Assembly: GCA_958009085.1 (NCBI GenBank)
Contig: OY253668.1
Coordinates: 1,922,001-1,986,000 of the forward strand
Length of the DNA stretch: 64,000 nt
Source of the DNA: Protoeuglena noctilucae
Lineage: Eukaryota
Reading direction: 5' to 3'
Part shown: positions 3,001 through 58,824 of the stretch, piece by piece
Layout of the letters: each line of letters opens with the position of its first letter
Numbering within the stretch: the stretch's first letter is position 1
Notes under the pieces: model-generated
Seen by the model: only the letters and a program-made list of their open reading frames with translations
Databases searched by the model: none
What the model was told of the DNA's origin: nothing
Translations under genes and position numbers: made by a program

Positions 3001-6000
3001 GCCCTCGGGGTGAGGGTGCGTGGCCAGCGACACGAGCGGCAGCGACGCCGCGCCCTCCCCGCCCTCTCCCTGCGCCTCTTCCACCACGCTGGCGCTGCTT
3101 GAGGGACCCGCACCCCCCCGCCCCCNNNNNNNNNNNNNNNNNNNNNNNNNNNNNNNNNNNNNNNNNNNNNNNNNNNNNNNNNNNNNNNNNNNNNNNNNNN
3201 NNNNNNNNNNNNNNNNNNNNNNNNNNNNNNNNNNNNNNNNNNNNNNNNNNNNNNNNNNNNNNNNNNNNNNNNNNNNNNNNNNNNNNNNNNNNNNNNNNNN
3301 NNNNNNNNNNNNNNNNNNNNNNNNNACCACCAGCGGCGCCCACACCGTCATCCGCACACGACGGAACAGCGCCGCGCCAGCCGCAGATTCCGAAACAGCC
3401 CCGCGCCCGCGCCCACGCCCCCGGCCACGCCGCCCCCGCCCGCCCCGCCCGCCGGCGCCGCGGCCTCCTCGCCCGCGCCCCCGACCACCTGCCAGTCGAA
3501 ACCGATCTCGTACCGCGCCTCGGGGCTCGCGGCAGGCGCGACCTCCACCGCCAGTGACCCCGACCCGGCCGAAACCACCGTGTGGGGCGCGGGGAGCTTG
3601 ATGGGGGCTCCCGGCCGCGAACCTGTGCCCCTGCGGCTCGACCACCACGCACATCTCCTGCATGGGGTTGACCGTAAACACCGCCCCGACGTCCCCAGGC
3701 CCCACGGCAGCTTGTGCCAGGGCACTATCCCCAGCAGCCCCCGCGCCCAGCAGCGTGAATGCAAGGGGCACGGGGAGGGTAGTTGGCGACTTCCAGGGGC
3801 GGGCCGATGACGAGGTCCCAACTGGGAACGGCACGGCCCCCACCGCCCCCGTGCACCTGGTGCATGCGCCTGACGCACTCCAAAGCCAGCCAGACGTGAG
3901 AGTCAAAGGCGGTGGAGCGGGAACGCTGCGGCGGCGAGCGCGCGTTAGGCGGCGCGCCGGGCGGGGGCAACCGGGCGCAGTGGAGCAGCACGAAGCCGCC
4001 TGGCACGAGGGCGGTGAGGTCGACACAGCTGTCGGCGCTTCCCGCCTGTGCGGCGCCCCACTCGTACTCGGACGCGGGTCCGGGACCGCCGGGGGGCTCG
4101 CGGGGCCGCAGGAGGACCACGGAGGCGGCGTTGCGTGCCAGGAACTGCAGGGGAACGCTGGCGGACTCCCCCGGGCTTAGTACGCCCAGGTAGCCTGGGC
4201 TCGCGGCCTCAGAAGCCCTCTGGAGCTGGGATGTGATGGGCACGTCCGTAGCACTGCGGGAGGGATGAAGGGGGGGGGCTGGCGGGTGGGTGGGAGTAGC
4301 CAGAGAGAGGGTAGCAGGGGCAACGCATTACATGGGCAACATTGATGCATGGTCCAAACCCATACAAGCATAGATGTGCCTCCCTCGCCTGGCGGACTCG
4401 TCGCCCTCCTCGTCGTCTGCGTGGCCGTGGTTGCCCGCCAACACCACCCGCACGCGGCGGCGGACCCACCGACGCCTCCTGCAATGACGTTCATGGGGTG
4501 CTTTTGATATTGTGAGCATTCACAGCGAAGGGCTTGTAAACAGACATCTGTCGCTCCCATCCCTCACTCGCCTGACGAAGTGGTAAGCCCGCCGGACGGC
4601 GTTGTGCGGCGTGGGGGGCCAGGAGAGGTCCTGGAAGCTGATGCTGTAGGCCCAGCCATCGGCATCGGTGTTAGCATGCACCTCCGCCTCCCAAGGGCCC
4701 TCCCAGCGCCACCCCGCGGGCAGTGCCACCTGTGGGAAGTCGTTGCTGCTGGCGGGGAAGGCGTGGGAGTAGGGGCGACACGAATCAAAGGGAAGGAGGA
4801 ACCCACGGCCACCCCAGCCCCTGCAAGCGACGACGACGGTAGGGGCACATGAGCTTGCGGGAGCTCAGCGACTCGCTGCTGTGGATGTAAGAGGCAGATT
4901 AAGCGGTGGAAAAGCGATGCTAGGACACGATATTGCCCCTCAATGTTAATGTGTTTGTTACCGCCGCCTTGGAAAGGTCGGCGCGATCGCCATAAAACAC
5001 TCGCCACCATGCATCACTCCCATCATCCAGCACTCGCCTGAGGGGCTTGAACCGCTGGTTCTCAAAGACCTCCAGCTCGTCCCGCGGTTCTCCCGACTCC
5101 GGCGGAGGCACCACAAACACCCCTGGCCCGCTCGCCCGCCTCGCACGACCCCGACCCTCCCTTTGCCCCGTATGCGCCTCCACTTCCGACCCCGCCCGGC
5201 TGTGGCCCGGCCCCTGAGCCCCTCCCTCTGACGAGGGCCACCGCCCATAGTCGGAAAGGCTGTCCCGGCTGCCATACGCCGCTTGGAAAGGCCCCGGCTG
5301 GCCCTCGTGGTTGCCCTCCAGCAACACCATCACCTCGACATCGAACGGCGCTGTGTTGGTGACGCGGCAGCGGGACGACACCACGTCCACCGCACGCCCG
5401 TCGCGCACGGCTCGCTCCAGCAGCAGCACCTGGCTGCCCACCTGCACGGCTCGGCAGTCTTGTGCCGGGGCTGCACCGCTCTCGCCCTTCACACCCTTGC
5501 CCCTCGCACCGCCCTTGGCACCTGCACCTGTGCCGTCCCCCACCGCAGCTCCCGCGTCGCCCAGGGCCGGCAGCACGCCCCAAAGCAAACCCTGGATGTC
5601 CTCTTCGCCCTCAATCGCCAGCGCCCGCGCCCCCACCGCCGCCGCCCTCCCGCCCCCTCGGCCGCCCTCCACCACATCCTCCACCCACACCTCGCACTCC
5701 ACCACCGCACCCCCGCGTCCCACCGCCGCCGACACCCTATGCTTCCTTGGAGCCTGCCCTGTCCCCGCCAGCCGCGCCGCCACCCCCTCAGCTATCGCGT
5801 CCCTGTCCAGGTCCACCACGCACTCCCCCAGCTCCACCAGGACCCCTCCCGTGCCCTCGGCCCGCGCCGTCACGCGCAGCAGGCACGGCCGCACGGCGCC
5901 GCCCGTGAGCCGGGCGCCGGGGTCGTCGATCGCCAGCGTCGCCAGAAACACGTCCCCGAGGTCCGCCGAGGCGCGGCGGCCGGCCGCCAGGGCCGCGGGG

Positions 6001-15000: not shown

Positions 15001-18000
15001 GGACGTGTCGCTGCTCGCAAAGGTGAAGAGCTCGTAGGAGGGGCGGGCACGGGCGGGGAGGTTGAGTGGGGCTGCGGCGTCGGAGTCCGAGACGAGCTGA
15101 AAGCGACCCAGGTTGACCTGAGAGGGTGGGGGTGTGGGTGGCAGTGAGGGTGGCAGTGAGGGTGGCGGTGGGGGTGGCAGTGGGGTGGCAGTGGGGGTGG
15201 CAGTGGGGTGGCAGTGGGGGTGGCAGTGAGGGTGGCAGTGGGGTGGCAGTGGGGGTGGTAGTGGGGGTGGCAGTGAGGGTGGCAGTGAGGGTGGCAGTGG
15301 GGGTGAGAACAAAGGGTGTCGCAGCAACACTGAGCCCCTCACCAGCACGGCTGGCACGCGGTCGGCCCCGGGCCTCGGGGTGGCGATCAGGGCGACGCGT
15401 GGGGCGGCCCAGTCGAGGCAAACGCGCAGCCGAGGCCTCTCCTCCAACCCCGCGGCTTTCAGAGAAGCCAGCGCCGCGTCTCTCGCGGACTGGTACGTGG
15501 CCGTCGCTTGCTCCGTCAGGGGCGACTGATCCACCTCCTCGTCCACACTGCGAGAATGCAAGAGGGTTGAATGCTATGATTGCAAGCGAATGACTGCAAG
15601 CACTGCAGAAAGCATGTGACCAGACATCACATCGTCAGCACTGCTAGCGTCGCGATCGCATCAACCAATGCGCCACCACACTTGACCATCGCTCATCGCC
15701 CAGGGGTGGTGCATGTCTCCATCACTGCCCCACTGCACTGTCCCACTCGCCTGAAGAACGCCAACACTTCGTCCATGGTCCTCCGATCGAGGGCCACAAA
15801 GGAAGGCGCCACCGTCACGCCGACCTCGTACACCGCAACCCCCGTCCCCTCCTCCGTGCTCGCCGCCAGCACCAACTCCGCCAGCGCCGGGCCCTCCAGC
15901 AGCGCCTCGGGCGCAGGCCTGCCCTTGTGTCCGTCACCACCACCCGCCTCCTTCCCTCGTGGCCCGCCCTTACCCCCGGCGACCTTGCTGCCGCCGTTCT
16001 TGCCTCCCGCGCTCTTGGCCCCCGCTCCCTTGCCACCCGCGTCCTTTGCCGCATCCTTTGCCGGTTCCTTTGCCCCAGCGTCTTTGACACCGGCGTGCAC
16101 CGCTTCCTTGCCACCTATGTCCTTCCCACTCGCTCCCTTCCCACTCGTGTCTTTCCCAGCTACTTCCATGCCACTCGCACCCTCGGGTGCCGGGGCAGGT
16201 AGCGCAGCGGGCGCCTGCTTCTCGCTGCCGTGGATAATGACACCCCGTGGACCCACCAGGCTGAAATCCACCAGGCGCACCAACCCCTGCTGCCTCTCTG
16301 CAAGGAACAAGGAGAAAGGGGCGAGTTAGACATCAGTCATCATGATCGTACGTATCACTAGCAAATGCGGTTTGGATCGAAATGGCTGACGACGGAGAGA
16401 GCAAGCGTTCGGCAAGGCCACCCTCTCGTAATTGGGGCACACGCACGCCCTGCAGAAAAACCCCCACACACATCCGCGTCTCCCACTCACCGGGGAACAC
16501 GCACGCCCGGCAGAAGAACCCCGAAGCGCGCGACTGTGCCAGCTCCGCCCCATTGCGACCGGACAGCGACACGGCCGCCTCCGCCACCGCCGCGTCCACC
16601 CGCACGACCATCTTGCCCCGATCAGCCCACGCGGCCTTCTGCGCCTCCTCGTGCTGCCTCACCAGGTCCTGCAGGGCCCCCACCTCCCGGTCGCTGAGCT
16701 CGGGGGCGTCGGAGGGGCGCGCGGCGGTGTTGGCCGGGACCCAGGAGCTGCGGGGTGGGTGAGGGGGGTGAGAGGGGTGAGAGAGATGGGAGGCAAAAGG
16801 ACGTGACCAGTGGAGACCTCGCTGTTGATGTGTGCATGTAACGATGGCAGCGACTGGGTGTGCACTCCACTATTGCCCGCCACGCTCACCCCATCCACGA
16901 CTGCTACCCACCCACAGCCGTGCTCACCCCAGCCACCCCATCCACGACTGCCGCGCCTGCGCTTCCTGCTCCTTCTTCATCCTTCCCCTCCGCGCCTGCT
17001 CCCCCATCCACCGCGCCTGCGCCAGTTTCCGGAACAGCAGCGCCACCCCTTCCTCCAGCTCAGCATCCATCCGACGGATCTCCACGTCCTCGCGAGGGTC
17101 GCCCCCGCGCTCCAGAGCCTCGAAATACTGCTGGACGTACAGACGCCTGTGGGAGGGAGGGGCGGGGGTGGCCTTGTAGGGGTGTTGGGGTGCGTTGCGG
17201 TGCAGGGGTGGCAAGAGGTGAGGAGAGATGAAGACAGGGTGGTAGAGGTAGTGCGCAGAGCTAAGCCAAAGTGTGCACGAGCAGCCCTCTTCCTGTGCCT
17301 CTGCCACGTGCGCTGCCACCGCAGCCGCAGCCTCGGCCCCACCTGCACACGACGGCCTTCTGCATAGCTTCCCAGGAAATGCGCGTCCCCAAACGCCGCT
17401 TGAGAGCCACCTGCGCCGCGTACCGCCACCACTGCCGGGCTGCCCCTGGCTCGGCCCCGGGCCGCGCCGAAGGGCGCAGCTGGGCGTGGGGCAGTCGCCG
17501 CTGGTACATGGAGACGGCGTCGGCGATGCGCGTCAGAGCCGCGAAGTGCGCGGCGCCCAGGCGGAGGCGCAGGGAATCCACGGAAAGCGAGGCCTGGGGA
17601 AGAGAGGAGCAAGCGCGGTGTCAGCGAGGGTGCCCATGTGTGTCAGGGGTGGAGCTGAAAGGGGTGGTGTTAAGGGGAGCTCAGGGGTTCGTCAGAAGTC
17701 GGGAGCAGTGAACATAGATTGCTGAGGGTGCCGATGGCATGCTAGCAGCCAACAGCGAACGCCCGCCATGCCACAATTGCCCCTGTTTGCTCGCCTCATG
17801 GAGGGCGTCCCCCGCCAGCACCCGTTCCTGGCTGCCGCGTCGCAGGTAGAGCAGCGTCAGAGTCAGCGGCTCCAGCAGGTGGCTCTTGGGCACCGTTCCT
17901 GGCTCTTTGTGCACGGGGCCATCCGTCTGAGACCCCGCACGGCACACGATGCCGGGCAGGAACCACCGATCCCAGTCGTCGCTGAAAACACACAGACACA

Positions 18001-26840: not shown

Positions 26841-28169
26841 ATGGCCGCGGAGTGGGGCCCCGCTGTCAGTCGCTGCGATGACGGTGAGGATGGAGTAACA
26901 ATGTTTAAGACGCGGGCATGGCAGAAGACTGGATCTCTGGCCGGAGAGGCTCGTCGAGTGAAAACGCTCGCGCTCGCGCACAAGTCTTCGTGCTCGTCAC
27001 TCCCCCGCGCCTGTGGTCGACGCCGCAGGCATAACGTCGGTCCGATGGTCGCCGGACGGCCATCACCTGGCCGTGTCGTCGTGGGACGGGACGCTGCGCG
27101 TGGTGCACGCGGCTGACGGCGTCGAGGTGGATGCGTTCCGTCTCAGCGGACCCGTCCTGTGCGCCGAGTGGGCCCACGGATGGGTCGCGGCGGGCACAGC
27201 GGGCGCGGGCGTGGTCCTCTGCGACCCGACGTCAGGGTCGCGTTCGCTCCTGGGCCACCACGACGCCCCCGTCTCTGCGGTCGGGCCCCTCCCCGGCTCA
27301 GCCCTCGTCTACTCAGCCTCATGGGACGCCACCCTTGCTCTCTGGGATCCCAGGTGAGCCGACTGCCCGCACATGCACCTCTCTGGGCCATGCTAGGATG
27401 TGAGCGCCATGAGGGTGACATGGGGTTGCATCCCGGCAAGCGCAGGCTCCCTGACGGCTCCCGCTGTGTGGCCCGCGCCGCCCTGCCCGGCAAGTGCTTC
27501 TCTGCCTCGGCGGGTCCCGACCGTATCGTCGCCGCCACCTGGTCTCTCGGTGTGAGCGTCTACCGTGCCCAGGACCTCTCAGCGGGCCGCGTGCACGCCC
27601 CTGAGGCCCAACGATCCTCGAAAGCCAAGAGCCAGACGAGGGAGGTGCGATGCGACCCCAAGGGTGCTGGCTACGCCCTCGCCGCCGTCGACGGCAAGGT
27701 GTCGGTGGAGTATTTCGACTCCGAGGGGCGCCGGCCGTTCGCCTTCAAGTGCCACAGGCGAGCGGCGGGAGCAACCAGCGCTGGGTGGGGACTAAGTGGC
27801 GGAGGTAAGACAAGCAGCCCCAGCGCCCAGCGTGGCCCTCTGTCCCTCTCTCGCAGAGACAAGCGGCCTGACGGGGAGGCTACGGTGCACCCCGTCAACG
27901 CAGTGGCGTTTCACCCGATGGCCACCTTCGCCACCGGTGGCTGCGACGGCGCCGTGCACGTCTGGGACCCCCATCACCAAAAGCGCATCCACTCGTTCCC
28001 CGTGCTGCCGGCGCCCGTGGCGTCGCTGGACGTCAGCCCGGACGGCACTGCTGTGGCCGTGGCGGCGTCATATACGTACGAGCTGGGAGAGATGGGAGAG
28101 AGGGACGCGCCTGCTGAGCACCGAGTGTTCGTCATGCCGGTGACCGGCAGGGAATTCCACCCGCGATGA
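26841..28169 (+). CDS. BUB3: BUB3/RAE1-family WD40 protein, most like mitotic checkpoint BUB3
   Basis: DDGITSVRWSP, SSWDGTLR, HDAPV, SASWDATLALWDPR, VDGKVSVEYFD, FAFKCHR, HPVNAVAFHP, FATGGCDG, AASYTYELGE. Confidence 0.85.
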
Positions 28170-28332: not shown

Positions 28333-31300
28333 ATGGGTCCTTGGCACCGTACGCAGCGCTCGCTTGCAGCGCTCGCTGCGCTGTGCGCCCTTCTGGGCAT
28401 CACTGCGCATGGTTTCGCTGCTCTAAAATCCCGGGAGCTCCTGAGCAAGCATCCTCTCGAAGCGATACGGCCGGACAGCATCCGCGAGTCGTGGAGTGAT
28501 GCCGTCACCGTCCGCGTGAGCCCGAAAGATCCCTTGCCTGCATCCGGCTCCTACGTCGAGGTGTCTTGGAGCGGATTCGCGGGTAAGGAGCGTTTCAAAC
28601 CCTGCGGATTCGCGGGAGAGAATCCAAGCGAGGGAGGTACCCAATGCGGACGTCTTTCTCTCTTCGCAGAGCCCAACGACGACGATTTCATGGCTGTCTA
28701 CGTGGAGGGCTACAGCATGCAGGAGACCTCGCCTGTCAAGTACCGCAAGCTCTCCCAGGCATCGCCAGAGCACGTCCGGTCCGGGTCGGGGTGAATCGCG
28801 TGCCTTTGCATCCGCTCCCACCAAAGCAGCAGGGCATCTGGGCAACGCTCCCCTCCCCACCAGCGACACAACGGCCTAAGTGTAGTGCAGCTTGTCAACC
28901 TGCGCGCCCCATCCCCACCCTCGCAGTTCGGCCGAAGTACAGCTGCTCAACCTGCGCGCCCCTCTGCGCATCGTGCTCTTCACCGGTGGATTCGACCGGC
29001 CCGTGGCCGTGGCGCAGTCGGGCCCCATCCAGTTCGCCACTTACAACGAGCCGACCGGCGTGCACCTCATGCTCGCCCACGGGGGCGACGTCCTCGTGCA
29101 ATGGACCACCCGCGACTCCGCGAGGCCTCTGGTGCAGTTCGCACGATCGGACAGCCACGGGCAGAGCGACGCTGCTCCGTCAGAGGCGGCTGCGTCAAAC
29201 GCATCATATGTTGCAGAGGACATGTGCGGGGGAGCGGCGGCCGGACGGGGGTGGATCCACCCCGGCCAGCTGCACACGGCGCGGATGGCGGGCCTCGAGC
29301 CGGGCATGCGGTACCGGTTCCGAGTGGGGGACCCTGACCTGCCCGACGCCCCCTGGAGCGCCTGGCGAGAGTTTTTGGCGCCCCCCGCCACGGGCCCTGA
29401 CGCCCACGTGCACATGGTGGCGTTCGCAGACGTGGGCACCGACGAGGCCGACGGGTCCAACCAGGCGAGCAGTCACGCGGTGGTGGAGGCAGAGGCTGTG
29501 CATGGTGGCTGCAGCTGCACCGACACACTCTCACACTCTCAGACCCCCCACGCACCCCCACTCCGCCCCGTGGGTCCCGCAGGTGCCGGGATGGGACCAC
29601 TATTTCCACGGTGCGCTAAACGTGGCCTCTGCCATCCGGGACGCCTTCCCTGGGGCCTCGTATGCGCCCTTGGGGCAGGAGCCAAGCGAGGTGGTGGCGT
29701 ACGGGCGCAAGGGGGGTCTGCAGGGTGCGATGGTGGTGGACGGTGCTAAGGCAGCACATACAGACAGTGTGCCAAGGGGTGGCAGTCACGACGGGGACCT
29801 GCCGCAGCTGGTGGTGCTTAACGGGGACGTGTCGTATGGTATGGGGGTGAGTCTGAGCACCCAGTGTGGCTCGTACCATGCGGCCTGCCACGGCCCAGGG
29901 CTGGGGGTGTTGCGTATCACCTCCCCTTGCATATCAGCCCGTCTTGCGAGTGCCTCTCCTTGCGTATCGCCTCGTCTCATGTTCCCGTTGCAGTTCGTGA
30001 GTACGTGGGACTCGTGGCTGGACGTTTTCTCCACACCACTCAGCTGGGCGCCGTGGCTCACGACAATCGGCAACCACGAGCGCGACTGGCCCGGGTCGGG
30101 GGACCTCTTCGGTGGCAACGACTCGGGGGGCGAGTGCGGGGTCGCATACATGGCCCGCATGGTCATGCCAACCGCAGAGGAGAGCCTGAGCAAGGGCCCG
30201 GGTGCCGAGAGAGCGGAGAGCGCCAAGGGCGAGCAGGAGGGGCGAGGGGGGCTAGAGGGCGTGAGAGAGAAGAAGAAAGACAAGGACCATGGAGGGGCAT
30301 CACACGCAGACGGGGCATGGCTGGATGAGGTGCTGTCGGCACCTGCGGGGGATGGGATGAAGCGGTCAGACGTGGCCGCACTGGGGTACGGCGCAGCACT
30401 GGCGGCGACCACGAGGGCGGCGTGGCGCGTGGGCGGAGGCGCGGGGCTCATCGCTCGTCACGTCGCGGGAGACCGTCCGTGGTTCTCTGTGGACTTTGGG
30501 CGAGTGCTGGCGTGGGGTACTGGGGTCGTGCTCAGTGCTTGTGGAGGCGATCACAGCGTCGATCTCTGGAGACTGTGGGGCTGCTTCGTGTTTGTCGATA
30601 CGATCACTCCGTGACGCAGCGGATGCCCTCTCGCCCCCGCAGGCCCATCCACTTCACGCAGATCAGCACGGAGCACGACTTCTCCAAAGGGTCGCCCCAG
30701 TACGACTTCATCCAGGCGAGGGTCCTGGCACTACAATATGGGTCGCCAGCTGCCTGTTTGCAACCATGAAGGCAATTGCAGTAACCCACGCGTGCCTTGA
30801 CTGCACCCACCAGCGACCCCAGTCACCTTTTCGCCCCTAGTTACCCTCGCGCCCCTCATCAAGTGCCCCCCGTCACCCACCCACCACTCTTCTGTTCCCA
30901 GCGCGACCTGGCTGCCGTGGACCGCTGCCGCACGCCCTGGCTCATCGTCGGTGGCCACCGTCCCTTCTACATCGACAGCCAGGACGTGACGCCCATCTCT
31001 GGGGACGCCACGGTGGCCAAGTGGCTCACGAAAGACCTTGAGCCACTCCTCCAGTGAGAATAGAATAACAAGCGCCGCGCTGTGTATGGGTCTACCGTCT
31101 CTTTGCCACTGCGCCTTCCCATGTCGCCTCGCATCTCAGTATTGCTACCGCTATCCCAGGTCAGGCATATCTCTTGCTAAGTCGAGGACATGTCACATGT
31201 CCTTCTCTTGCCTTTCAGGCAGTACATGGTGGACATGACGTGGACGGGCCACAACCACTCGTACCAGCGCACCTGTCCCGTGCTGGGCGGCGCATGTGTG

Positions 31301-31688
31301 GGGTACGCGGCCGACGGCACTGCCAAGGGACCCGTGCATGTGGTGATGGGGTTCGGGGGCGCGGGGCTCAGCACGGAAGTCGAGCCCAAGCAACCGCCCA
31401 TGTTCGAGAAGGCAGGGGCTTTGATATGCGATATGCTCTGTCGAAGGTGCGGTGTGCGCAGCTACACGTATGTTCATGACTATGCCCCTCTGCGGATTGC
31501 AGGTGTTTTTGGGATACGGCTATGCGATCGTGGACGCGTGGACCGAGGGTGACGCCCGCAAGATTCGCGTTCGTGCTGTGGCGGCCGACGACGGAAGCAC
31601 GATCGACGAGGTGGTGCTGGTGCGGCCCATGGACCCGGGGTGCCCCAAGGGAGCGGGGCACGAGCAGGGCGTGGCTGAGGTCTCCTGA
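28333..31688 (+). CDS. Secreted purple acid phosphatase (nucleotide pyrophosphatase/PAP27-like group)
   Basis: Signal peptide and all five PAP blocks: ADVG (DxG), NGDVSY (GDxxY), GNHERD, GGHRPFY, GHNHSYQRTC. Also DSGGECGV and STEHDF. Confidence 0.93.
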
Positions 31689-36549: not shown

Positions 36550-37862
36550 CTACTTGGACTTCTTGGCGTTCGCCTCCGCGTTCGCGAGCCGAGTGACGAA
36601 CGTCGACATGCCCTCCTTCTGCGGCACGCATGTCGGAAGAGGGCCGTCTTGCTGGGGGACGTCTCCCATGTCGCCAGCTGCGGCCAACTCCGCGGGCGCG
36701 CGCGCACCTTCCACTCCTCGACCTGCCTCTTGCTCACGACGTTGGCCTCGATGAGCTTGTCGGCCTTGGCGACCCACACGGAGACGGACTTCATCGCCGT
36801 GGCCACCGCCTTCTCGAGCTGCTCCCTGCGTGCCAGAAACAACCAGGAGGAGATCGGCCACACCGAGCCAGGGCACGATGACGGCAGGGATCGCGCCGGC
36901 GGTGCGGGGCCTCACGGCTTCACGCCCTCGATCTGCTTCACGGCGCTCTTGTTGAACTGGTTGTTGGCCAGGAACTCCTCCATCCGCTTGTCGTAGCGCT
37001 CGAGGTTCTTCGCCCACTGCGGCAACGGAGAGACAACGACGCGTCGCACGCCTCGCCCCCATCCGGCAGGGTTGGGCGGGTCATGCTGCCCATGAGGGCC
37101 CAAGCCTTGCTGAAGAGGGGAAGGAGCAGCGAGGCGATGTGGCCGGCGCCGTTGTACACCGGGTTGATGAGGTAGAGGATGATCACGAGCTTGCCCACGT
37201 AGTAGAAGGGGATGCCCTTGAACACGAAGCCCCACAGCGGCACGGCGCGCGCAAAGTCCTGCGGGGCCAGGGATTGCGGAGCCCGATCGGCCCCACACCG
37301 CAGCTACGTCGCGGCGTCGACCACAGCCACCCGATGCGACTCGTGCGGGGCCCGGGGGGCTGCCCCAGCGCCCGGCCCAGGCGACATGCCACGCGCCTGC
37401 GCGAAGTCGAGGATGTTGAGGAGCGAGAAGACGATCCAGTAGGTGAGCCAGTGGCCGTCGTCCTCCGTCCCCTTGGTGGAGACCGCCTGCATCGACTTGT
37501 AGATCGGGTACAGCGTCCCGAAGACGTAGCAGAGGAACCTGCGGGCAGCGCGCGCGCCTCGCCGTGGCCGCGGGAGCTAAAGGGGCTTTCCCCCGGCACA
37601 TTTACTTCCCATCATGCCACTCGTCCACCGATACCGCGCCCCGGCGGGCCCCCCGCGACGATCGGGCAGCCTTGTTAGCGGGCGACCGGTCGGAGCCCCG
37701 GGTCGATTCCGGGAGCGCAAAGCGCCCTCTCGCGACAACGAAAGGACGGGGGATGGCGCGTGACGGGTCCCGGGGGCCCCCGCGGGAGGGCCAGCGTCGC
37801 GCGGCTCACCTGGGCAGGCCCATGAAGTTGCCGCTGATGATCTCGGTGAAGAAACCGAACAT
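36550..37862 (-). CDS. TB2/DP1/HVA22 (REEP/Yop1) family ER-shaping protein
   Basis: YVFGTLYPIYKSMQAV, DDGHWLTYWIVFSLL, IPFYYVGKLVIILYLINPVYNGA; helical C-terminal extension ending AKKSK. Confidence 0.9.
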
Positions 37863-38117: not shown

Positions 38118-39561
38118 CTACTTGCGCCTGGGAGGGTCTACGTCTACCGTTCCACCCCCCGATCGCGCGCTGCCGTAGAGGTTGCCGTGGGCGTCCATGG
38201 GCAGCGGCGGATTGAGCCAGAAGGACCCAGGCGTCGTGAGGTCGCTCACTTCGAAGCTGATCTCGTCAAACACGGCGTCTGCGGGGGTCAGGCCCTCGCC
38301 GACACGGTGGAGAAGCTCCACGCGTCCGTCGCCAGGTCCTTGAGCGTGAAGCGCTCATCGCCGGCATCGCCAATGCAGTCCACCACCGCGTCTGCGGCCG
38401 CGGCACCTCGCATGCCTGCCCACGTGGGCCCCAAATCGCCACAAGCACAGTTCATCTGCTTAGCGCTCACCGGCAATGTCGAAGTTCTCGTTCTGGGTGT
38501 AGCTGCTCTTCGTCACGACCACCCGCATCCCCGCCGCCTTCCCCGCGAGCAGGCCGATGCGCGAGTCCTCAATCACCACGCACCGTGCAGGCTCCACGGC
38601 ATACTTCTCGGCGGCTAGCAGGTAGATGGCGGGGTCCGGCTTCTTCTTCGGCACCACGTCGCCGGCGAACACCTGGTGGTTATGAAGGAAGGAGGAGGGC
38701 ATGTGACCCCGGGAGCCGGCCGCATGCGGAAAGGTCTGCGGCACCCGCTCGCCGCTCGCCTTGACGTGCTTGGAGATCTCCGGGCCGAGCATGACGTCCA
38801 CGATCGTCTGCACGGCCTTCTCGTTCGACGTGCTGCAGACAGCCACCTTCACGTCGCTGTCCAGCGCCTCCTGGATGAGGCGCTGGACCCCCGGGCGGAG
38901 GGGCATGCTGCCCGCCTCGATCATGGCTTGGAAGATGCCCGTTTTAAGCAAGTGCAGCTCCTTCAGGAACTCCCAGCGCTCCTCCTTGCCCTTGATGGAC
39001 TTGAAAGGCTCCCGATCCTCACAGGCTGCGCGCAGCAGTGGGAGGGCGTCGCACATTGCACTCCCGAGCGCGAGGCGGGCCCAGCGGCCCACGCGGGCAG
39101 GGCACTCACTCGAGAAGTAGTGCAGCATCCTCTCCTTGCCCCCTCCAATCTCGAGGAGCTTGCCGTACTGCTCCACGCCCCACTGCGAAGCAGGAAATCC
39201 GGGCTTTCCACGTTTGTCGGACCCCAGGATGCCGAGCGCCTCGTGCATCGCCCACGACCGAGCCCTAGCAAACAGGTGCGACTGCTGTCGGAACGTGTCC
39301 GCGCACCTCGTGGTCGAGCCCGCGCTCCTTGAACGCGGCGTTGAACGACACGCGATGCCCGTCCTTCTCCGTGTCCACGAGCACGCCGTCGCAGTCAAAG
39401 AAAAGCGCTTGCGGCCAGTCGATGTTCCGCAAGCCGAAGGCCACCAGCGAGCGCGCCCTCGCGACCGGCATCGCGACGCGCGTCCCAATCCTCCCACGGG
39501 GCGCGGGGCACCCCGTCCTGAGGCCCGCGCCCGGCGCCCGAGCGACGGACGGAGACGTCAT
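38118..39561 (-). CDS. CBBY: CbbY-like HAD phosphatase (xylulose-1,5-bisphosphate phosphatase), plastid transit peptide; two candidate last exons
   Basis: ALFFDCDGVLVDTEKDGHRVSFN, LLEIGGGKERM, LRPGV, VCSTSNEKAV, FAGDVVPKKKPDPAIY, VVIEDSRIG, TKSSYTQNENF. Confidence 0.92.
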
Positions 39562-39849: not shown

Positions 39850-41539
39850 ATGCAAGTCCTGCGCGGCGCATTGCCTGCGCGGTGCCTGCCGCTTCGCCCG
39901 TCCAAGCCCCGCTCGCGCCCCTTCACCACCCTCCGCGCCCTCCCTCGCCTTCTGCACAAAGTGACGGGGCCAGGACCGAAAGAGGCTGCCCTCGACAACG
40001 GGTTCCGGGTCCCTCCGAAGCAACGGGGGGCGGACGTCTTGCTAGTAGACGCCAACAACATTGCTATCGGCGTCCGTCGCGGCCTGGCGAAGCGCTACGC
40101 GAAGAAAGCAGCGGGCGAAATCATCGCGGCGTACCTCGACTTCTTCACGGCATACACGGGGGCAGGCGTCGTGCTCTCGGTTTCCGACCCTCCGCCGTTG
40201 CAGCGCTCGTACCGGCAGTCCCTCAGCGAGAGGTACAAGGCCCGGCCTGGACCTCTGGCGAGCCAGGGGGCGCCGAGGGGTCATGCGGCGCATTTCGCTG
40301 TCGACTCCCGCGAGGGGCACTTCGCATGGCAGGTCTTGGATGGCAGCGAGGGCGACGACGGGATGAGGGCGGCGGCCGCCGCCATTACGGAGGCGTTCCC
40401 GGGGAAAGCGCGGGTCGCCGTGGTGTCTGGCGACGAGGATATGGCTTCAGTTGGTGGGTAGCACGCTGGCGTGCGATTGCCGGCTCGTGGGTGGGAAGGC
40501 ACTTGGGACCTGACACCGTGGTCACCCCTCGCTGCCTGCAGTGGGCCCACAGGTGTTCTGGCTGCGCATGTGCACGACGCCGTCGACGACCGATGCGTCC
40601 CACGTGCGTGTCATCGACGAGGCTGCCCTGGAGAAGGAGTGGGGTGTCAAGTGGGTGGCCGCTCGTGTCCCTGGCTGCCCTCGCGGATCCCTTCCATTCA
40701 CTGACTCAGGGCATCCACCCGTGGTATGCAGGCCGGCGAGCTGGGACATGTTTTGCGCCCTCCGCGGGAAGAAATCGGTCGGTATCCAGGGTCTGGGCGT
40801 CTCGACACCGTCGGCGAGGAATCTGTCGTCGAAGTTCCCCACGGTGGAGGCGCTGCAGCAGGCCGTTCAAGACGGGTCGCTTTCGGCGGTCCGTTCTCCG
40901 TTCCAGGACCGCACGTGGGAAGAGGCGCTGCAGGCGCTGGAGACCAATATGGCGCTGGTCAAAGGTCCCAGCGTGGATCGCGTGCTGCCCGGCGACGTCA
41001 TCGCAAGTCTGCAGGAGAACGGTGCCATACACCGCTCGATACAGGCAAGGGGTGTGCGGGTGCCCAGCGGGCGCAACGCAGTCGTTATTGTCAGGTTCTA
41101 GTCGTCGTTCAGCGACGTTGCCAATGTGGAAAGCGCGCAGGAGAGCATGGCGAAGAGGCGCTCCCCAGCGTCCCTGGCGAACCTGCCCGCCCTCGTTCCA
41201 GAGACTGCCGTCCACTTCCGGGTCATGGAGCCATCGCTCGTGCGGCTGGCGGACGTGTGCGCCTCGCAGGGGCTGCGTGCGGACCTGGCATGGTGCGACC
41301 GGGCGGGCAACGTCTTCGATGCCGTCGTGGACGCAAAAGGCGGCCCAGTCGCCCTGCTTCTCTGCCCGGACCACACCTACTCTGACCAGGTGGCCCAGAT
41401 GCCGGCCTGGGTCAGAATCCGCGTGCGCAAAGCCCGGCAGGCGGGGCTCCGCCCAGTTGTCCTGAGCCCCGCAACGGTCCTCAAGATGGCTCACTCCCCA
41501 CGGCTGCTGCTCGACGCCCTGCAACGTGCCCCCGGCTAG
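39850..41539 (+). CDS. Organelle-targeted 5'-3' exonuclease/flap endonuclease (Pol I 5'-nuclease, Xni-like) with C-terminal extra domain
   Basis: Basic transit-like N-terminus MQVLRGALPARCL; LLVDANN, VSD, YRQSLSERYKAR, EGDD, VSGDEDM; H3TH-like ALRGKKSVGIQGLG...ARNLSSKFPTVEAL. Confidence 0.8.
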
Positions 41540-43015: not shown

Positions 43016-43395
43016 CGGCACGGAACCTAGTCCTTCGTGCTACTGCGCTCACGCATAGCGGCTGCGGCTTCTCGGATCACTTGCAAGGACGTGCTTTGAA
43101 CTCATCAGGGGCTCAGGACGACACCCGGCAGTGACGCACCCCCCGGCGAGATCAGTCGGACGCCTGATAACGTCACGTTGGAGAAGCGTGCGCTTCGATG
43201 GAGCACCACCAGCGCCGGAGGCGGGCTGCGGACGGCACGGGCGCATTGCATGACACATCCAACGCATCGCAAGGCAGCCCCGGCAGGAGGCGAAGCGGTG
43301 CGGGGGGCCCCGCATCTCGCAGTGCCAGGCCAAGGCTCAGAGATTGAGATGGGCGGCCAGAACGTGCTGTCACTCGTGGCAAAGACACCTCTTCC

Positions 43396-44969: not shown

Positions 44970-47696
44970 ATGGCGAGCGCGGGGCTGCGGGACAAGCTCG
45001 CGAGGGCCGCGCGGTCGCTCCTGGGGGCCCGTGGCATGAGCACTTCTACCCTTGATATCAGGCAGGCGGTCGCGGCGAAGATCCCGGAGGAGCAGGTGAC
45101 GCGAGGGGCGTGGCAAGGGCAGCTCCTCCCACGACGCATGCCGTTCTCAGCTTTCCTTTTCCAGGCGCTCCTTTGGCCCTTTAGTTTCCGAAAACGCTGC
45201 GGCAAAGGCCATCGGAACGCTGAGATGTCACCCGCGGTGCGCTAACACTGCGCGGACAAGGAGCCGGCCGCGCCCGCCGATGATGGGTCCGGCCGCCTCG
45301 CGCTGCGGTCGGGAAAGTGTCTATGCGATCCTCGGACCAGATACGCTCGCAAACGCTGCAACCGCTCCTCCGGTGTGGACCTTTGCCTCCTCCGCACCCT
45401 TACGCCGTTCCGTGCGTCCCCCGCGCTCTTGGCCGATGTACTGCGGGGTTCACGTGGAGGGGAGCACGTTGATCAATTGATGAATTCCCTCGTCCCACTC
45501 ATCCGTCCACCGATGGCGTCGTTGCGCCTCGGCCGGCCTCGCTCCAAGGGATGACATTTGCCAACCCTGGAGCCGCTCTGGCCTCTCCGCAGGAGCGCCT
45601 GAAGCAGATCAAGGCCGAGTACGGGCAGCGCTCTCTTGGGGAGGTCACAGGTGCGCACTCGCGAGCCCTTTGCCGGCAGGGCGCATGCTCTGGACTGCAT
45701 CCCCACGGCAGGACCGCAGCCTCCGCCCACCCGCGCCCGCCGTTTCGTGCCGCAGTGAACATGGCCGTCGGTGGCATGCGCGGCATCAAGGGGATGCTCT
45801 GGGAGACGTCGTTACTGGACGCGGACGAGGGCATTCGCTTCCGGGGCCACTCGATCCCCGAGCTGCAGGCTGTCCTGCCCACGGCGGGCGGCGGGCACGA
45901 GCCCCTCCCCGAGGTGAGCGCCTGCTCAGCCAGGGACACGCCCATTCGCTGCAGTGAGCTCTCACCCTCTTGGGAAGAGACGCGCGTGACGGATCAGTGT
46001 CCCGTTCGCAGGGCCTCCTGTGGCTCCTGCTCACCGGGGACATCCCGAGCGTGGCGCAAGTGTCCGAGCTCTCTGCAGAGCTCCAGATCAAGTCGGCTTT
46101 GCCCCCGCACGTCCTCAAGGTCCTCAAGAGCCTCCCCGAGCGCACGCACCCCATGACGCAGGCGCGGCCGCTGCCCCGCGGGAGATAGACCCGATGGACT
46201 TATGTGCCATGCAGCCTTGACAAGCGTGCTAGCAGTGCCGCCGTCTACAAGGATTACAATTCTCCACCCGCAGTTCAGCATCGGGGTGATGGCAATGCAG
46301 GATCAGTCCGTCTTTGCACGTGCGTACCAGGCGGGCATGAACAAGAGGTGAGGGCCGTGAGGGAGCAGGGTGGTCATGCCGGTGTTGCTTTGCTAAGGAT
46401 GAGTGTGATAAATTGCACAATTTCTTGCGTTGCAGCAAGTTCTGGCAGCCGGTGCTCGAGGACTCAATCCACTTTATCGCCAAGCTCCCCACGCTCGCGG
46501 CTACCATCTACCGGCAGACGTACTACCGCGGAAACCTCATCGACCGGGAGCCCGGCAGCGACTGGGCGGGGGGACTGGCGCAGATGATGGGGTTCCCTGC
46601 CCCGGAGGCCAAGGTGAGGGGCGCATCCGTGCCACTGCGCGAGCCCCGCCAGCCGCCTGGGGCGTGTGGGCGATTGCCGACCCCCGACCCACGCGCAAGA
46701 GATGCCCACGCAACAAATGGCACTTCTCCCTGCCCCTCGCGCGCCCGCAGGAGATGATGCGCCTGTACCAGACCATCCACGCCGACCACGAGGGCGGCAA
46801 CGTCTCGGCTCACACGGCGCACGTGGTGGCGTCGGCCCTTTCCGACCCCTACCTGTCCTTCGCCGCAGCCATAAACGGCCTCGCGGGCCCCCTCCACGGG
46901 TGAGTCTCCTATCCACATCCCCCGCGCACGCTCTCGCTGACCTGGGGTCTGTTCGTTTGTAGTGGCTTGACGCGTCGGGCACTGACGAAGGACCCCGCAT
47001 CGCGTGCGCCCGCAGCCTCGCGAACCAAGAGGTGCTCCGGTGGCTCAAAGACCTCACCCGGGACCTCGGGGAGAACCCCAGCGCGGAGCAGCTGGCCAAG
47101 TACTGCCGGGACACGCTCGCGGCGGGTCACGTGGTCCCGGGGTACGGCCACGCCGTCCTCCGCAAGACGGACCCCCGCTACACGTGCCAGCGCGAGTTCG
47201 CCCTCAAGCACCTGCCAGACTACCCGCTCTTCCAGGTGAGCGCTCGCCTGGGGCTGGTTCTGTTGGGAGGTGCCCCATGCGGCGGTGCCCTGCCCACTGC
47301 TCGCTTCGATTGTGAATTCGTGGGGGGACATGAGTGCCCATTGTGGGACTGTGACGTCCTTGACAAGCGCCTCCGAGCACGCCCAGCTTGCCCGCCACCG
47401 TCGCCCACCCGCCCCGACCCCGCGCCCCGCAGATCGTGTCGAGGTTGTACGAGGTCGTCCCCAACATCCTCCTCGAGACGGGCAAGGTGAAGAACCCCTG
47501 GCCGAACGTCGACGCGCACTCGGGCGTCCTGCTGCAGTACTACGGCATCAAGGAGGAGAACTTCTACACGGTGCTCTTCGGGGTCTCTCGCGCCCTCGGC
47601 GTGCTCAGTCAGGGCGTGTGGTCGCGCGCGCTGGGGCTGCCCATCGAGCGGCCCAAGAGCCTGACCATGTCGTCTATCAGCCAGTGGTTCCGCTGA
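44970..47696 (+). CDS. CS: Mitochondrial citrate synthase
   Basis: Presequence [111 protein letters not shown]. Confidence 0.98.
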
Positions 47697-51174: not shown

Positions 51175-51355
51175 GGGATCACGAAGGGGAGCAGCTAATG
51201 CAAGCTAATTTTTCACGGTGCCATTCTTTTGCGTGAAACAAAAAGGCAGTGCTGTTTCATTTGCTTTGCTCTTTGAATTGAGTCGTTTCTCGGCCGCCAT
51301 TCGGCCAGCGATGGAAGCTTCCTGATGATGTGGCGTTGAGTAACGCCGGGGGAGA

Positions 51356-51547
51356 TGGGTGCACCGGCAAGGCTGAAGTGCAGTGCCAAGCCAATGCTGG
51401 GACCCCGAAGCCGCAAGCGACTCCGTGTGGGGCCCCCCCTCAAAAAACTGGAGTAATGACAATGGGGGACTATGTCCCCCAATCGAGTCATTACACTCGA
51501 TAGAACAGATACTACACTTGATCTTAGCCAAATGGCCGAGAAAGGTT
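51356..51547 (-). ncRNA. U2: U2 spliceosomal snRNA
   Basis: Minus strand reads AACCTTTCTCGGCCATTTGGCTAAGATCAAGTGTAGTATCTGTTCT (branch-point helix GTAGTA). Stem IIa ATCGAGT/ACTCGAT with loop GTAATG complementary to downstream CATTAC; U-rich Sm site; stems III and IV with loop ACTGCAC. Confidence 0.98.
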
Positions 51548-51574: not shown

Positions 51575-51579
51575 TTATA
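51575..51579 (-). promoter_or_regulatory. TATA box of U2 gene
   Basis: TATAA about 30 nt upstream of the U2 5' end within very GC-rich sequence, as in plant/algal snRNA promoters. Confidence 0.7.
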
Positions 51580-54585: not shown

Positions 54586-57340
54586 ATGGCCCGCTCCGCG
54601 CTCGTGACGGCCCAGGGCCTCCTGGCGCGCGCCTGCGAGTCGCTCACGGCTGAGGCAGGACCCCTCTCGAAGCTCTCCGCGCTTTCCACGCCCATCACGG
54701 GAGGACGCGCCTGGCCACGGTGCGTCATGACGAGACACCCTCCGTTCTTCGCGCCGGGGTCGCGGTATCCGCGGAGCTTTTCGACATCCTCTTCTTTGGA
54801 GCCACTGTACTTTTGTGGTGAGTACCCAGGCGTGGGGGTCGCGCCTCACCGCGGCCACAGCTGTCCATTCAGCGAGGAGCCCTGAGGAAGTCCGCGATCA
54901 CCCCCGGCGCTCCCCGGAGCCTGGCTGACCTCATTACTTACAGCCAAAACGATGCGTAGTGGCGCTGAGATGCCTGCGGTCTCATCACGGCTTGGGGCTT
55001 GCTTACGCGCAGTAGTCGGGAGTGGCCCAGCTGGGATGTACGCTGCGGACAAGCTTCTGCGCCGTTACGGTGACTTTGCCCGCGTGGATATCATCGAGCG
55101 CCTCCCCACTCCCTTTGGCCTCGTGCGGACGGGCGTGGCGCCGGACCATCAGGAGTCCAAGGCAGTGCTGGGCCAGTTCAGCAAGATTTTCGCGGATCCC
55201 AGGTGATGATCCCGTGCCGCAGGTAGCTTATGAGATGCAGATTCAGGATATCGCCATCCGCGCGGCTGCGGGGGCCCCTGGGGACCTTGGCAGCTTCGCA
55301 CTGTGGCCTCGCAGGTGCAGCTACTTCGGCAACGTCCGCGTGGGCGTGGACGTCAGCGTGTCGGAGCTGCGGGAGCTCTACAACGTCATCCTTTTGGCCT
55401 ACGGCGCGGAGGCCGACCGGGACCTCGGCATCCCCGGAGAGTCGCTCTCGGGCGTCATCCCAGCCCGCGAGTTCGTCTGGTGAAGCCCGGCGCGCTGCCC
55501 CGGACGCCCTCCGCCCCGCTCTCGGTCCGCACCGGCGCCTGACCTGTCGCTTTTTCGTCTCCTCTGCTCGCAGGTGGTACAACGGCCACCCCGAGTTCAG
55601 CCGCCCGCCCGTGGATCTCTCGGCTGTGCGCTCGGTCGCCGTCCTGGGCGTCGGCAACGTGTCGCTGGACATCGCGCGATTGCTGCTGAGCAACCCTGCC
55701 GAGCTCGCCTTCACGGACATGCCCTCGCCCGGTGACACGCACACGCGCCCCTGTGCCACTGTGCGGGCACTGCACCCACACCCTGCATATGGGGTGCTCC
55801 TGACACCGACGGTGGCGTGCTGAGACCGAAATTCTCTTCTCTCGCTGCAGTGCTGGAGCACTTCAAGAAGAACAGCGTGGAGGTGGTCCACCTGATCGGC
55901 AGGCGGGGCCCCGTGCAGGCGGCATACACGCCCAAGGAGCTGCGGGAGGTCCTTTCTCGTGAGAATCTTTGAACTGGGTTCTTTGTGAGCCATTGGGATG
56001 CTTTCTCAAACAGGTTCGAGAGAGGCGGTCCCTGTTTGTGTTCACGCAGTGCCCGAGGCAGTCCCGGAGGCAGATGCGGGCAGCCTGGCGCTGACGGAGG
56101 CGGACCGGGAGGAGATGAAGACGCACCGCATCCGGCGACGCAACTACGAGGTGCTGAGCAAGGCCGTCTTTGATGCGCAGCAGCGGGCGGCGTCGGGCCC
56201 AGTGCGCCGCACGAGCGGGGCGGCCCCCAAACGCCTCGTCTTCCGATTCCTGCGGTGAGAGGCCGCGGTGGACGTTTGCGATGCGCAGCTCGGCGACGAG
56301 CTACTGCGAAGGCGCAGCGGGCTGCAGAGGGCTTCAGCAGCCCTGACTGCCCTACCAGGGCACCTGTGTGTGCTACCCGTCAGGACGGGCATTGGTTCTC
56401 GTCGCAGATCGCCGGTGGAGATTCGGCAAGGGGCGGCGGGCGGCAAGGAGCTCGTTCTGGAGAAGACGCGACTGGAGCCGGGGCAGAAGGCGAGGGCAGG
56501 GTGCACGCCTTGACACCTGTGCTTGATTTGTAGTGCCCGACTCACACTGCGCTGGTGGCAACATTCTTACCAATATAAACGAAGCAAATCGCTGGGTTGG
56601 TGCTCCCGCAGGGACAGGAGCAGCGGGCGGTGGGGACCGGGGAGACGGAGACGCTCGGTGTGGATTTGGTGCTGAAGAGCATTGGGTACAAGAGCGTGCC
56701 TGTGGAGGGTATCCCGTGGGACGACCGCCGCTCGGTGGCGCGCAACGTCGCGGGGAGGGTCGTGGAGGCCGACGGCTCGCCTGTCGCGGGCATGTACGTG
56801 TGCGGGTGGCTTCGGTGAGGGGGCGCGCACGCGGCAGGGCCCCCGTAGCCGGTGCATGTCGGAATCTCGGCAGACAGGGTTGATTTACTTTTCTCCAACG
56901 CAGGCGTGGCCCGACGGGTATCATTGGGACCAATTTGATCGACGCTGAGGAGACGGTGGACGTCATCACGGACGATGTCAACAACAAGCGACTCCCTGCC
57001 GTCCAGGCCATCCAGCCGGGGGGCGCGGTGCGAGATGCGCGACGCATTGTTGCGTTCCTTTACTGTTCCGCGCACATGGTTGACTGCTGGGGCATGCGGG
57101 TCACAGTTAAGGTCAAGGCTTGGACACACAAGCCCAGCATCGATCCCCACCACCCTGCCCTTCTCCCTGCCCTCGCAGGGTTTGTTAGAGAAGCTCAAGG
57201 AGCGCCGCGTGCAGCACGTTTCCAAGGAGGACTGGCAGGTGATCGACTCGGTGGAGGTGCAGCACGGCCGGAGCAACGGAAAGGTCCGAGAGAAGTTTAC
57301 CAGCACCAAGCAGATGCTGGACCTGGTGTGCTGTGCGTGA
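54586..57340 (+). CDS. FDXR: Mitochondrial NADPH:adrenodoxin (ferredoxin) oxidoreductase
   Basis: VVGSGPAGMY, ERLPTPFGLVRTGVAPDH, AREFVWWYNGHP, GVGNVSLDIAR, GRRGPVQAAYT, SIGYKS, GWLRRGPTGIIGTN, REKF. Confidence 0.96.
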
Positions 57341-57478: not shown

Positions 57479-58824
57479 TCACGACCCAGAGTGCGCCGTG
57501 CGGGCGGGCGCGGCCTTGGCCGCCGGCTGCCGCTTGCTGGGGTCCGGGAGGGCGGCGCACCGGCTCTCAAAGGCGGTGATCATGCGCCTCACGACCTCGT
57601 CTCGGAACAGCTGGGATATGTGCGAGTAGAGCTCGCTGCGGAAAGCGAAGTCCACGTGCACCGACAGCTGCGGCACAATGGGAACAGGGTCGGGTCTCAC
57701 ATCAAAGGGGAGGTGCACTTGCGAGGGACGTATCGTACATGAGCAGCGAACTGGCGGTGCTGTTCGGAAAATTGCGGGCGATGCGGCGCGCTCGGCCTCA
57801 CCCAGGTGGTCCCAGGGGTGGGTCCAGGTGCGATGCGCCAGGTGCTCTTGAGGTGCCGGAACAGGGCAGAGTCTCGCACCGTGCTCGCCACCGCCCCCGG
57901 CCTCTGCGCGGACGGCATCTCCAGCGACACCAGCGACACGTACCTCTCCTGCGACACACACGCGGATGCACACACATAGCATGCACGCACACATTGGGCC
58001 CCGCGCTCCACGCTGGCCAGTCGAAGTCGCGCGGGTGGGTGAGGGGCCCAAAGACTGAGTTGGCCGCCCTTGTTGCCACTCGCCTTGAACACCTGGAACC
58101 CCACGTCCAGCTCCGCCTCCATGTAGCTGTCCCCCACACGCTTGAGGATCACGCTCCGGCGGCACCACGGCACGAAGAGGTGGTAGTCCTCGACGCAGGC
58201 GACCACGGAGAAAACGTGCCCTGCGAGAAGGCCATTGGATATTACGGGCTGCCTGCTGCTTAACCACGGTGCGGGGCAAGGGGGACTCTTGTGAAGTGAC
58301 GCCCAATACCCACCTGGGGAGTACGGCACCAGGCGACGCTCGGAGAAGGTCACAGACTTGGACGGTCCCAGCGCCGAGCCAAAAATGGACCTGCTCTGCG
58401 CGCGCGCATCGCTCCATGCGCTCCGCCCGGTCGCCGCGGCGTGGCGTCCAAGGAGAGACGGAGGAGAGCATGACCTCATGTCCCATCGGCTAGTCCCACC
58501 ACTCAGCGGCGATGTCCCTACTCGCACAGCCGACGCGTTGCATTTCCCGACGCAGGAATGCAGCTCCCTGACACCGCTTCCGCTCGCGCGATTGCAGGGA
58601 GGGCCAGCGCGGACCCCGCATGAACCCCGCCCAGCGAACGCGCCACCCCAGACATCCTCGACGACCCGCGCTCCTAATACGTGAGAAGAACAAGCGGAGG
58701 ACGACGTAATGGCGGCGCTATCCGCCCTGAGCGCGGAGCTATTGCCAGACGATGTTTGGGCACCGCGAGCAAGCCATAGGGACGGATCTGGCCATCGTAT
58801 CCTTCTGCTCAAGCATGTTGACAT
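57479..58824 (-). CDS. COQ10: Coenzyme Q-binding protein COQ10 (START/polyketide-cyclase fold), long presequence
   Basis: FSERRLVPYSP, VFSVVACVEDYHLFVPWC, AELDVGF...ERYVSLV, LFRHLKSTW, VDFAFRSELY, MITAFESRC. Start uncertain. Confidence 0.92.

Follow-up and report, generated by a model that had tools for sequence, protein, structure and literature searches.

GC-AG introns are common across unrelated genes in a GC-rich 64-kb nuclear window from a probable green alga

We examined a 64,000-nucleotide stretch of the Protoeuglena noctilucae assembly GCA_958009085.1 (contig OY253668.1, positions 1,922,001 to 1,986,000 of the forward strand), hereafter the window, for introns that begin with GC instead of GT. 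An initial annotation had called such introns unusually common across unrelated genes and had proposed the donors discussed below. Our results bear this out: between roughly 20 and 25% of introns are GC-AG, far above 1–2%. They account for four of the 17 splice joints observed in RNA and, across five genes whose structure was resolved completely, for eight of the 31 introns, both counts lying above 10%. The GC introns that we claim are 17 in number; all 17 positions carry GC on the expected strand, and the sites are spread over nine genes, with five of them lying in a single VPS13-like gene. For comparison, GT-AG introns are reported to make up 97.9–98.7% of introns in plants, animals and fungi, with splice-site GC correlating with genome GC (PMC7072748).

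GC-AG junctions in RNA and their frequency

Splice joints were taken from RNA contigs (assembled sequences, not reads) of four marine metatranscriptome runs from one study (X1–X4), aligned to positions 27001–47000. A 5-kb probe (27–32 kb) was present in eight of 12 listed runs, four of them marine metatranscriptomes and four labelled with the organism, and the organism-labelled runs contain it at a share of 1.00. The alignments gave 37 joints, and donors were resolved for the 15 joints listed: 11 are GT-AG and four are GC-AG. The GC-AG joints fall exactly at proposed donors, each is found in four of four runs, and no permitted shift of the alignment moves any of them to a nearby GT. They are the purple acid phosphatase intron 30500..30642 (+ strand, TGG/GCGAGT, where the slash marks the exon–intron boundary), for which GC..AG is the only canonical placement; the HVA22 intron 37259..37396 (− strand, CAG/GCGCGT); the intron 38673..38759 of the CbbY-like HAD hydrolase (− strand, AAG/GCGAGC); and the citrate synthase intron 46162..46273 (+ strand, CAG/GCGCGG), the remaining six RNA joints of citrate synthase being GT-AG. 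Two further GT-AG joints were recovered, one at 43226–43399 from adjacent pieces of one contig and one at 46900–47015 from a loose end whose sequence sits at 47016. This brings the total to 17 joints, 13 GT-AG and four GC-AG (95% interval 7–50% GC); the probability of at least four GC donors among 17 is 2e-5 at a rate of 1% and 3e-4 at a rate of 2%. All 17 joints have an AG acceptor, and GA, GG, AT or any other donor besides GT and GC is absent among them.

For 12 claims without a listed RNA joint, we scored every frame-compatible donor/acceptor pair with donor and acceptor matrices trained on the 21 verified GT introns only. The claimed GC donor ranked first in 11 of the 12 tests, 5.4–16.5 bits over the best GT pair. 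Four of the sites beyond the exact joints also fit the ends of aligned RNA pieces, given that the contig alignment puts ambiguous letters leftmost, as seen at the listed joints. At the purple acid phosphatase intron 29465..29582 (+ strand, CAG/GCGAGC), pieces in X1 and X3 stop at 29461, as the intron predicts, and since the contigs stop matching before 29480 and 29483, the in-frame GT sites there are excluded. Splicing at 29465 gives a length exactly equal to that of the homolog P0001, and this donor was the first of nine pairs (+8.5 bits). At the other three sites the pieces cover only the acceptor and the final letters of the preceding exon. One piece in the BUB3-like WD40 gene begins at 27854, where leftmost placement would put it if the exon before the intron 27758..27856 (+ strand, CAG/GCGAGC) ends in CAG; the donor of this intron ranked first of 22 pairs (+6.7 bits); a homolog search with the BUB3 exon returned only unrelated WD40 kinases. 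In the gene of unknown family, a piece begins at 41138, again the leftmost placement, the exon and the intron 41045..41140 (+ strand, CAG/GCAAGG) both ending in CAG. At the weak donor of the phosphatase intron 31412..31502 (+ strand, AAG/GCAGGG), pieces begin at 31501, as expected for an exon ending in AG, and the junction FEK/V is colinear with P0001; by signals alone, this donor came second of three pairs.

Counted over genes resolved end to end, GC-AG introns are two of five in HVA22, one of four in the CbbY-like gene, one of seven in citrate synthase, none of six in the proteasome ATPase gene Rpt4 and four of nine in the purple acid phosphatase gene, giving the eight of 31 (interval 12–45%). 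The phosphatase gene was read in its entirety, an ambiguous donor near 29660 being counted as GT. The Rpt4 model was read by hand from reading frames, resting partly on what we take to be conserved in this protein; an alignment to a PDB entry confirms one of the six introns, and a self-trained ab initio parser recovered all of them. With GC donors allowed, this parser recovered 25–26 of 29 verified introns and predicted 119–120 introns, 29–30 of them GC, in keeping with the roughly 100–130 introns estimated in the initial annotation. Offered decoy donors in place of GC, it took 20 GG introns of 130 or 27 GA introns of 122, and beside GC it still took 8–12 GG. It also predicted an extra GC intron at 12402–12553, which is contradicted by homolog alignments starting at 12511, 12460 and 12457. 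Because it accepts decoys and this homolog-contradicted intron, we treat the parser as a rough check only of the GC share and of the total. Nor is the donor motif specific by itself: there are 30 copies of AGGCG[AC]G in sense, 22 in antisense and 13 outside mapped genes. The copy at 59801 lies inside an Rpt4 exon, and the background was too high for the strand asymmetry to be used.

The warning that GT-only predictors would mis-annotate these genes was confirmed. A GT-only parse recovered 17 of the 29 verified introns, as against 26 with GC allowed, losing eight verified GC introns and, with them, four of the 21 verified GT introns. Gene models from GT-only or strongly GT-weighted predictors are thus expected to be wrong in many genes of this organism, and such errors stay hidden because many introns are stop-free and in frame. 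The COQ10 intron 57949–58083 (135 nt) and the Rpt4 intron 60181–60264 (+ strand, 84 nt) are both of this kind; stop-to-stop open reading frames (ORFs) run through them, and ORF-based calls would insert spurious residues.

Sites placed by homologous proteins and reading frame

Five further GC introns are colinear with homologous proteins, four of them in the VPS13-like gene. A HMMER search of the full protein library with an N-terminal VPS13 exon gave 259 hits, and we aligned 21 proteins exceeding 2,400 residues with the window; a separate homologous-protein search with a VPS13 exon found no homolog. Splicing of the intron 4479..4571 (− strand, CAG/GCGAGT) joins ...HFV to RRRRWVRRR, colinear with the V-RRRR-W motif of the homologs P0037 and P0046; reading through at 4571 meets a stop, and the donor was first of ten pairs (+6.4 bits). 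Removal of the intron 4821..5037 (− strand, CAG/GCGAGT) yields the peptide ENQRFKPL-R-GWGGRG, which aligns without gaps to P0037 (in both repeats), P0018 and P0046. A GT alternative at 5052 would cost five residues, and the donor at 5037 ranked first of 16 pairs (+9.4 bits). The flanks of the intron 15548..15750 (− strand, CAG/GCGAGT) are colinear and gapless relative to P0018, with a three-residue difference to P0013, and the donor was first of 19 pairs (+9.2 bits). At the intron 17594..17794 (− strand, GAG/GCGAGC), the P0013 and P0018 alignments stop at 17795 and pick up gaplessly after 17594, and the 62-residue exon fits a gap in the VPS13_N profile (positions 226–283); this donor was first of nine pairs (+7.9 bits).

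The fifth lies in the purple acid phosphatase gene, for which a homolog search with one exon returned a single 55% homolog (P0001), aligned exon by exon, and a search of the ESM Atlas returned only bacterial PAP-domain clusters, without taxonomy. At the intron 30716..30901 (+ strand, CAG/GCGAGG), which is not among the RNA joints listed, the junction has a length equal to that of P0001; using the in-frame GT at 30722 instead would lengthen the protein by two residues, and this site scores 11.3 bits below 30716. The same gene contains a low-complexity insert in the exon 29994–30499 (+ strand), with about 65 extra residues relative to P0001. This insert may hide a tenth, in-frame GC-AG intron at 30229–30396 (AGG/GCGAGC ... 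GGCGCAG), which we excluded from all counts.

Three of the proposed donors are the best frame-compatible sites, their placement resting on reading frame and signal strength. In the VPS13-like gene, the donor of the intron 4254..4388 (− strand, CAG/GCGAGG) ranked first of nine frame-compatible pairs, 7.2 bits over the best GT pair; the linker around it does not align to VPS13 homologs. In the ferredoxin-reductase-like gene, the donor of 56490..56611 (+ strand, AAG/GCGAGG) was first of 15 pairs; the sole GT that keeps the frame lies at 56454, is 16.5 bits weaker and drops 12 upstream residues. In the COQ10-like gene, the Pfam Polyketide_cyc match reaches the end of the exon before the intron 57949..58083 (− strand, AAG/GCGAGT), whose donor was first of 21 pairs (+5.4 bits); GT donors at 58092 and 58104 would also keep the frame. 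Searching the PDB with the COQ10 region produced no match.

The proposed HVA22 intron 37017..37105 (− strand, AAG/GCTTGG), with a weak donor, showed a more complex behaviour. Contig pieces 36915–37257 are unbroken in four runs, so that the best-supported contigs read through the intron, which by itself would speak against the site. The longer ORF and the base composition of the tail nevertheless require splicing. Removing the 89 bases extends the ORF from 171 to 211 residues and carries it across two RNA-proven downstream introns, and the GC content at third codon positions (GC3) of the tail is 0.99 when spliced versus 0.66 when retained; there is no frame-compatible GT alternative. Retention of the intron would put the end of the ORF 19 bases upstream of the following exon junction, so that two spliced introns would fall within the 3′ untranslated region. 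The claim therefore holds as to the intron, which is real and has a poor donor, while in the assembled transcripts listed it is retained. This case suggests that weak GC donors can splice inefficiently.

Intron class and possible causes

The GC-AG introns are absent from mature RNA at the RNA-proven sites and, judging from their sequence, are probably of the U2 type. U12-type signals (a TATCCT-like donor, a TCCTTRAY branch site) were found in none of the 17 GC or 21 GT introns, and the two kinds of donor have flanks in common (G[T/C]GAG or G[T/C]GCG). The acceptor reads CGCAG in 17 of 21 GT introns and in 11 of 17 GC introns, and intron lengths are similar, with medians of 122 nt for GC and 103 nt for GT. 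On a flank matrix trained on the 21 GT introns, GC donors score like or above GT donors, the median being 7.4 for predicted GC donors, 4.6 for GT and 3.35 for GG decoys. As had been noticed at the outset, almost all of the claimed donors follow an exonic AG (16 of 17), and most read GCGAG (12) or GCGCG (2), with three others. The idea of exon-side compensation derived from this fared less clearly: exonic AG is more frequent before claimed GC donors than before GT donors (13 of 21; P=0.026), but in the RNA-supported subset the figures are 7 of 8 and 9 of 14 (P=0.35). Since that very motif had helped to select the claimed donors, compensation is only suggested.

The window is very GC-rich, as in Emiliania huxleyi and pelagophytes, with a GC content of 0.64–0.73, 0.68 in verified introns and a GC3 of 0.82 in coding sequence. 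The share of C in C+T is 0.64 within verified introns, whereas GC donors are 0.24 of donors. T at +2 is thus still favoured about 6-fold over the C:T composition of the introns (odds ratio 0.17), which indicates that the constraint at this position is weakened rather than absent.

We consider it probable that the GC-AG introns are of the ordinary U2 type and built up under GC-biased substitution while selection for T at +2 had weakened without disappearing. GC-biased substitution, whether through mutation bias, biased gene conversion or both, would keep turning the T at donor position +2 into C; an unchanged splicing machinery would tolerate C at this position, though not other bases; and selection for T would be weak but not absent. 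Several points weigh against this explanation. GC content alone fails to predict the level of GC-AG introns, since Chlamydomonas reinhardtii, at about 64% GC, has 532 GC-AG versus 25,053 GT-AG introns supported by expressed sequence tags, or 2.1% (PMC2846911 Table 2); its genome GC is described as comparable to the 64.2% of Nephroselmis pyriformis in the genome paper of the latter. The splicing-machinery genes seen within the window amount to that of the U2 small nuclear RNA (snRNA), the T-to-C direction at +2 is presumed rather than polarised against relatives, and the frequency derives from one 64-kb window together with one study's metatranscriptome contigs, at 15 of 37 joints. The coupling to high genomic GC offered in the initial annotation is therefore plausible, in view of E. 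huxleyi, the pelagophytes and the splice-site survey, but insufficient in view of Chlamydomonas.

That the GC-AG share is about 10-fold that of a green alga of comparable GC implies that something beyond base composition differs. One candidate is a changed machinery, along the lines of the spliceosome with relaxed +2 recognition proposed in the initial annotation. Either a U1 copy able to pair with C at this position or a modified U1-C, PRP8 or U6 would then treat C and U as nearly equal and let GC donors drift up; the use of GC donors with poor flanks (30500 after TGG, 31412 with GCAGGG) would also fit. We regard such a change as unlikely, given the preference for T over composition, the absence of any other non-canonical donor among the 17 joints, the retention in contigs of the weakest GC donor (37105), and a fully conventional U2 gene, the sole snRNA found. 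The gap to Chlamydomonas does leave room for a lineage-specific change in 5′-splice-site recognition. A more speculative proposal, which we would not expect to hold, is a modified 5′-splice-site reader (a U1 copy, U1-C or PRP8) that arose independently of haptophytes and pelagophytes, with donors like that at 37105 serving regulated retention.

Selection could also have kept GC donors as deliberately weak sites for regulated intron retention or alternative splicing. The HVA22 intron 37017–37105 would be an example, being unspliced in the best-supported contigs of four runs even though the full ORF needs its removal, and a connection between GC donors and alternative splicing has been described for animals and plants (PMC3488318). 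It is, however, a single example: in these contigs the other four RNA-proven GC introns appear spliced, the flanks of most GC donors are strong (by the medians given above), and the genes are housekeeping genes without an evident regulatory pattern, all of which makes this explanation improbable. Hardly credible, and already contradicted at the sites covered by RNA, is an artefact, be it that splicing really uses neighbouring GT sites, that the C in the genome sequence is erroneous, or that editing turns C into U ahead of splicing. Such a reading could appeal to the background frequency of the donor motif, including the copy in the Rpt4 exon, and to the parser's acceptance of GG decoys beside GC. 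Against it stand the four joints that permit no GT placement in any of four runs, the piece ends that exclude the in-frame GT at 29480 and 29483, and the presence of the 27–32-kb probe in the four organism-labelled runs at full share. Moreover, the RNA contigs match the window with zero letter differences, including across the retained HVA22 intron with its GC donor, which makes an assembly error, or editing of this unspliced transcript, less likely.

Accumulation of ordinary GC-AG introns under GC-biased substitution has precedents outside the green lineage. In the haptophyte E. huxleyi, about 55–65% of donors are reported to be GC, confirmed by reverse-transcription PCR and ascribed to a genomic GC of 65% (PMC4028052; Feldmesser et al. 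2014); GT-biased gene models mislead there, and intron retention is described as common (PMC4028052, PMC7779022). Both cases thus involve a high-GC marine alga with many U2-type GC introns, AG acceptors, wrong GT-biased models and retention. According to the same reports, however, GC is the majority donor in E. huxleyi, near the neutral expectation, and about 4% of donors are GA, whereas in the window, from a green alga as it appears, the share of GC donors is about 24%, T keeps its advantage and the 17 joints include no GA. In the pelagophytes Aureococcus anophagefferens and Pelagomonas calceolata, 14–17% of predicted introns are given as GC-AG, a share of similar order in high-GC marine picoalgae and likewise ascribed to GC content, while a low-GC relative is listed with 0.32% (bioRxiv 10.1101/2024.10.30.620910). 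Pelagophytes are stramenopiles described there as intron-poor (0.1–0.9 introns per gene), in contrast to the intron-rich, green-lineage window.

The introns in the window resemble the ordinary GC-AG introns of plants, animals and Chlamydomonas in their U2-type appearance, GC donor, AG acceptor and GT-like flank consensus, and differ from them in frequency, which is about 1% in plants and animals and 2.1% in Chlamydomonas (PMC2846911) versus 4/17 and 8/31 here. This intermediate level, between the 2% of Chlamydomonas and the roughly 60% of E. huxleyi, offers a handle on the strength of selection for U at +2 and makes it testable whether base composition or machinery sets the share of GC donors. 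Dinoflagellates use GC and GA donors and have a near-invariant G after the acceptor AG. Frequent GC donors are common to dinoflagellate-type splicing and the window, but the window lacks GA among 17 joints, has a G after the AG in only 8 of 15 listed joints, and is unlike dinoflagellates in GC content and gene density. In the literature covered by our search, to which the per-species supplements of the plant splice-site survey did not belong, we found no report of a comparable GC-AG level in a green alga, and the main text of the Prasinoderma coloniale and N. pyriformis genome papers does not mention splice sites. The phenomenon itself has already been described in haptophytes and pelagophytes; what is new here is most likely its occurrence in the green lineage, which would be a further independent lineage with common GC donors in a GC-rich genome.

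Gene content and lineage of the window

The window is a gene-dense and intron-rich nuclear stretch, with 4–9 introns in a typical gene and about 32 predicted in the VPS13-like gene. The genes were mapped by Pfam searches of stop-to-stop ORFs and an Rfam scan of the window. Pfam identified the 19-kb VPS13-like gene (−), a PfkB kinase (−), a PQ-loop protein (+), the BUB3-like WD40 protein (+), the purple acid phosphatase (+; 'PAP' in the initial annotation), HVA22 (−) and the CbbY-like HAD hydrolase (−); these are followed by the gene of unknown family (+) and, again by Pfam, by citrate synthase (+) and a RING/GIDE ligase (−). Beyond a U2 snRNA gene, Pfam placed the ferredoxin-reductase-like gene (+), the COQ10-like gene (−), the proteasome ATPase gene Rpt4 (+) and a GDSL lipase (−). 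The U2 gene (51354–51547, − strand; Rfam RF00004, 146 bits, model positions 1–192) is the only snRNA found in the window by the Rfam scan; it is complete and retains the GUAGUA box that binds the branch point. Just 3′ of it, a weak hairpin matches the Histone3 model below threshold (E=0.042).

The homologs of the VPS13-like protein and the N-terminus of the CbbY-like protein point to a green alga as the source. All named long VPS13 homologs belong to green plants (Gonium pectorale, Auxenochlorella, Cymbomonas and land plants), with G. pectorale having the best summed score among them. The sole 100% match to the VPS13 exon query in the protein library is a 107-residue ORF, and the representative of the P. 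coloniale VPS13 cluster shares 44% identity with the query exon. The CbbY-like protein has an N-terminal extension rich in Ala, Arg and Ser and without a signal peptide, which would be compatible with a primary plastid. A scan of metagenome contigs with the purple acid phosphatase exon found no relative. The annotation of P. coloniale is listed with 2.2 exons per gene (PMC7455551 Supplementary Table 7); this figure and the 44% VPS13 identity exclude P. coloniale as the source. N. pyriformis, with 64.2% GC and 0.27 genes per kb according to its genome paper, would be compatible in GC content and gene density.

In the regions 4560–5110 and 7077–9464 (− strand), the VPS13-like protein has a Vps62 domain and a module ENQR...GW...LPxGWxW...DGW...VRRRRW; the module is duplicated in the Gonium homolog, which bears the UniRef name Peroxin/Ferlin domain protein. 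Its gene also contains a 200-N assembly gap (3126–3325), and the intron that the parser drew across this gap (3095–3357) is meaningless. Among the RNA contigs, 12 of 13 loose-end sequences are absent from the window, two of them within citrate synthase exons (46637 and 46775); these foreign ends may stem from another copy of a gene, from an allele or from chimeras among the contigs. In X3, one contig links 33867 to 44181 across 38 foreign letters. Finally, one RNA contig runs unbroken over 39307–40443, from the first exon of the CbbY-like gene (−) into the start of the gene of unknown family (+), so that this head-to-head pair has 5′ ends that overlap or nearly touch.

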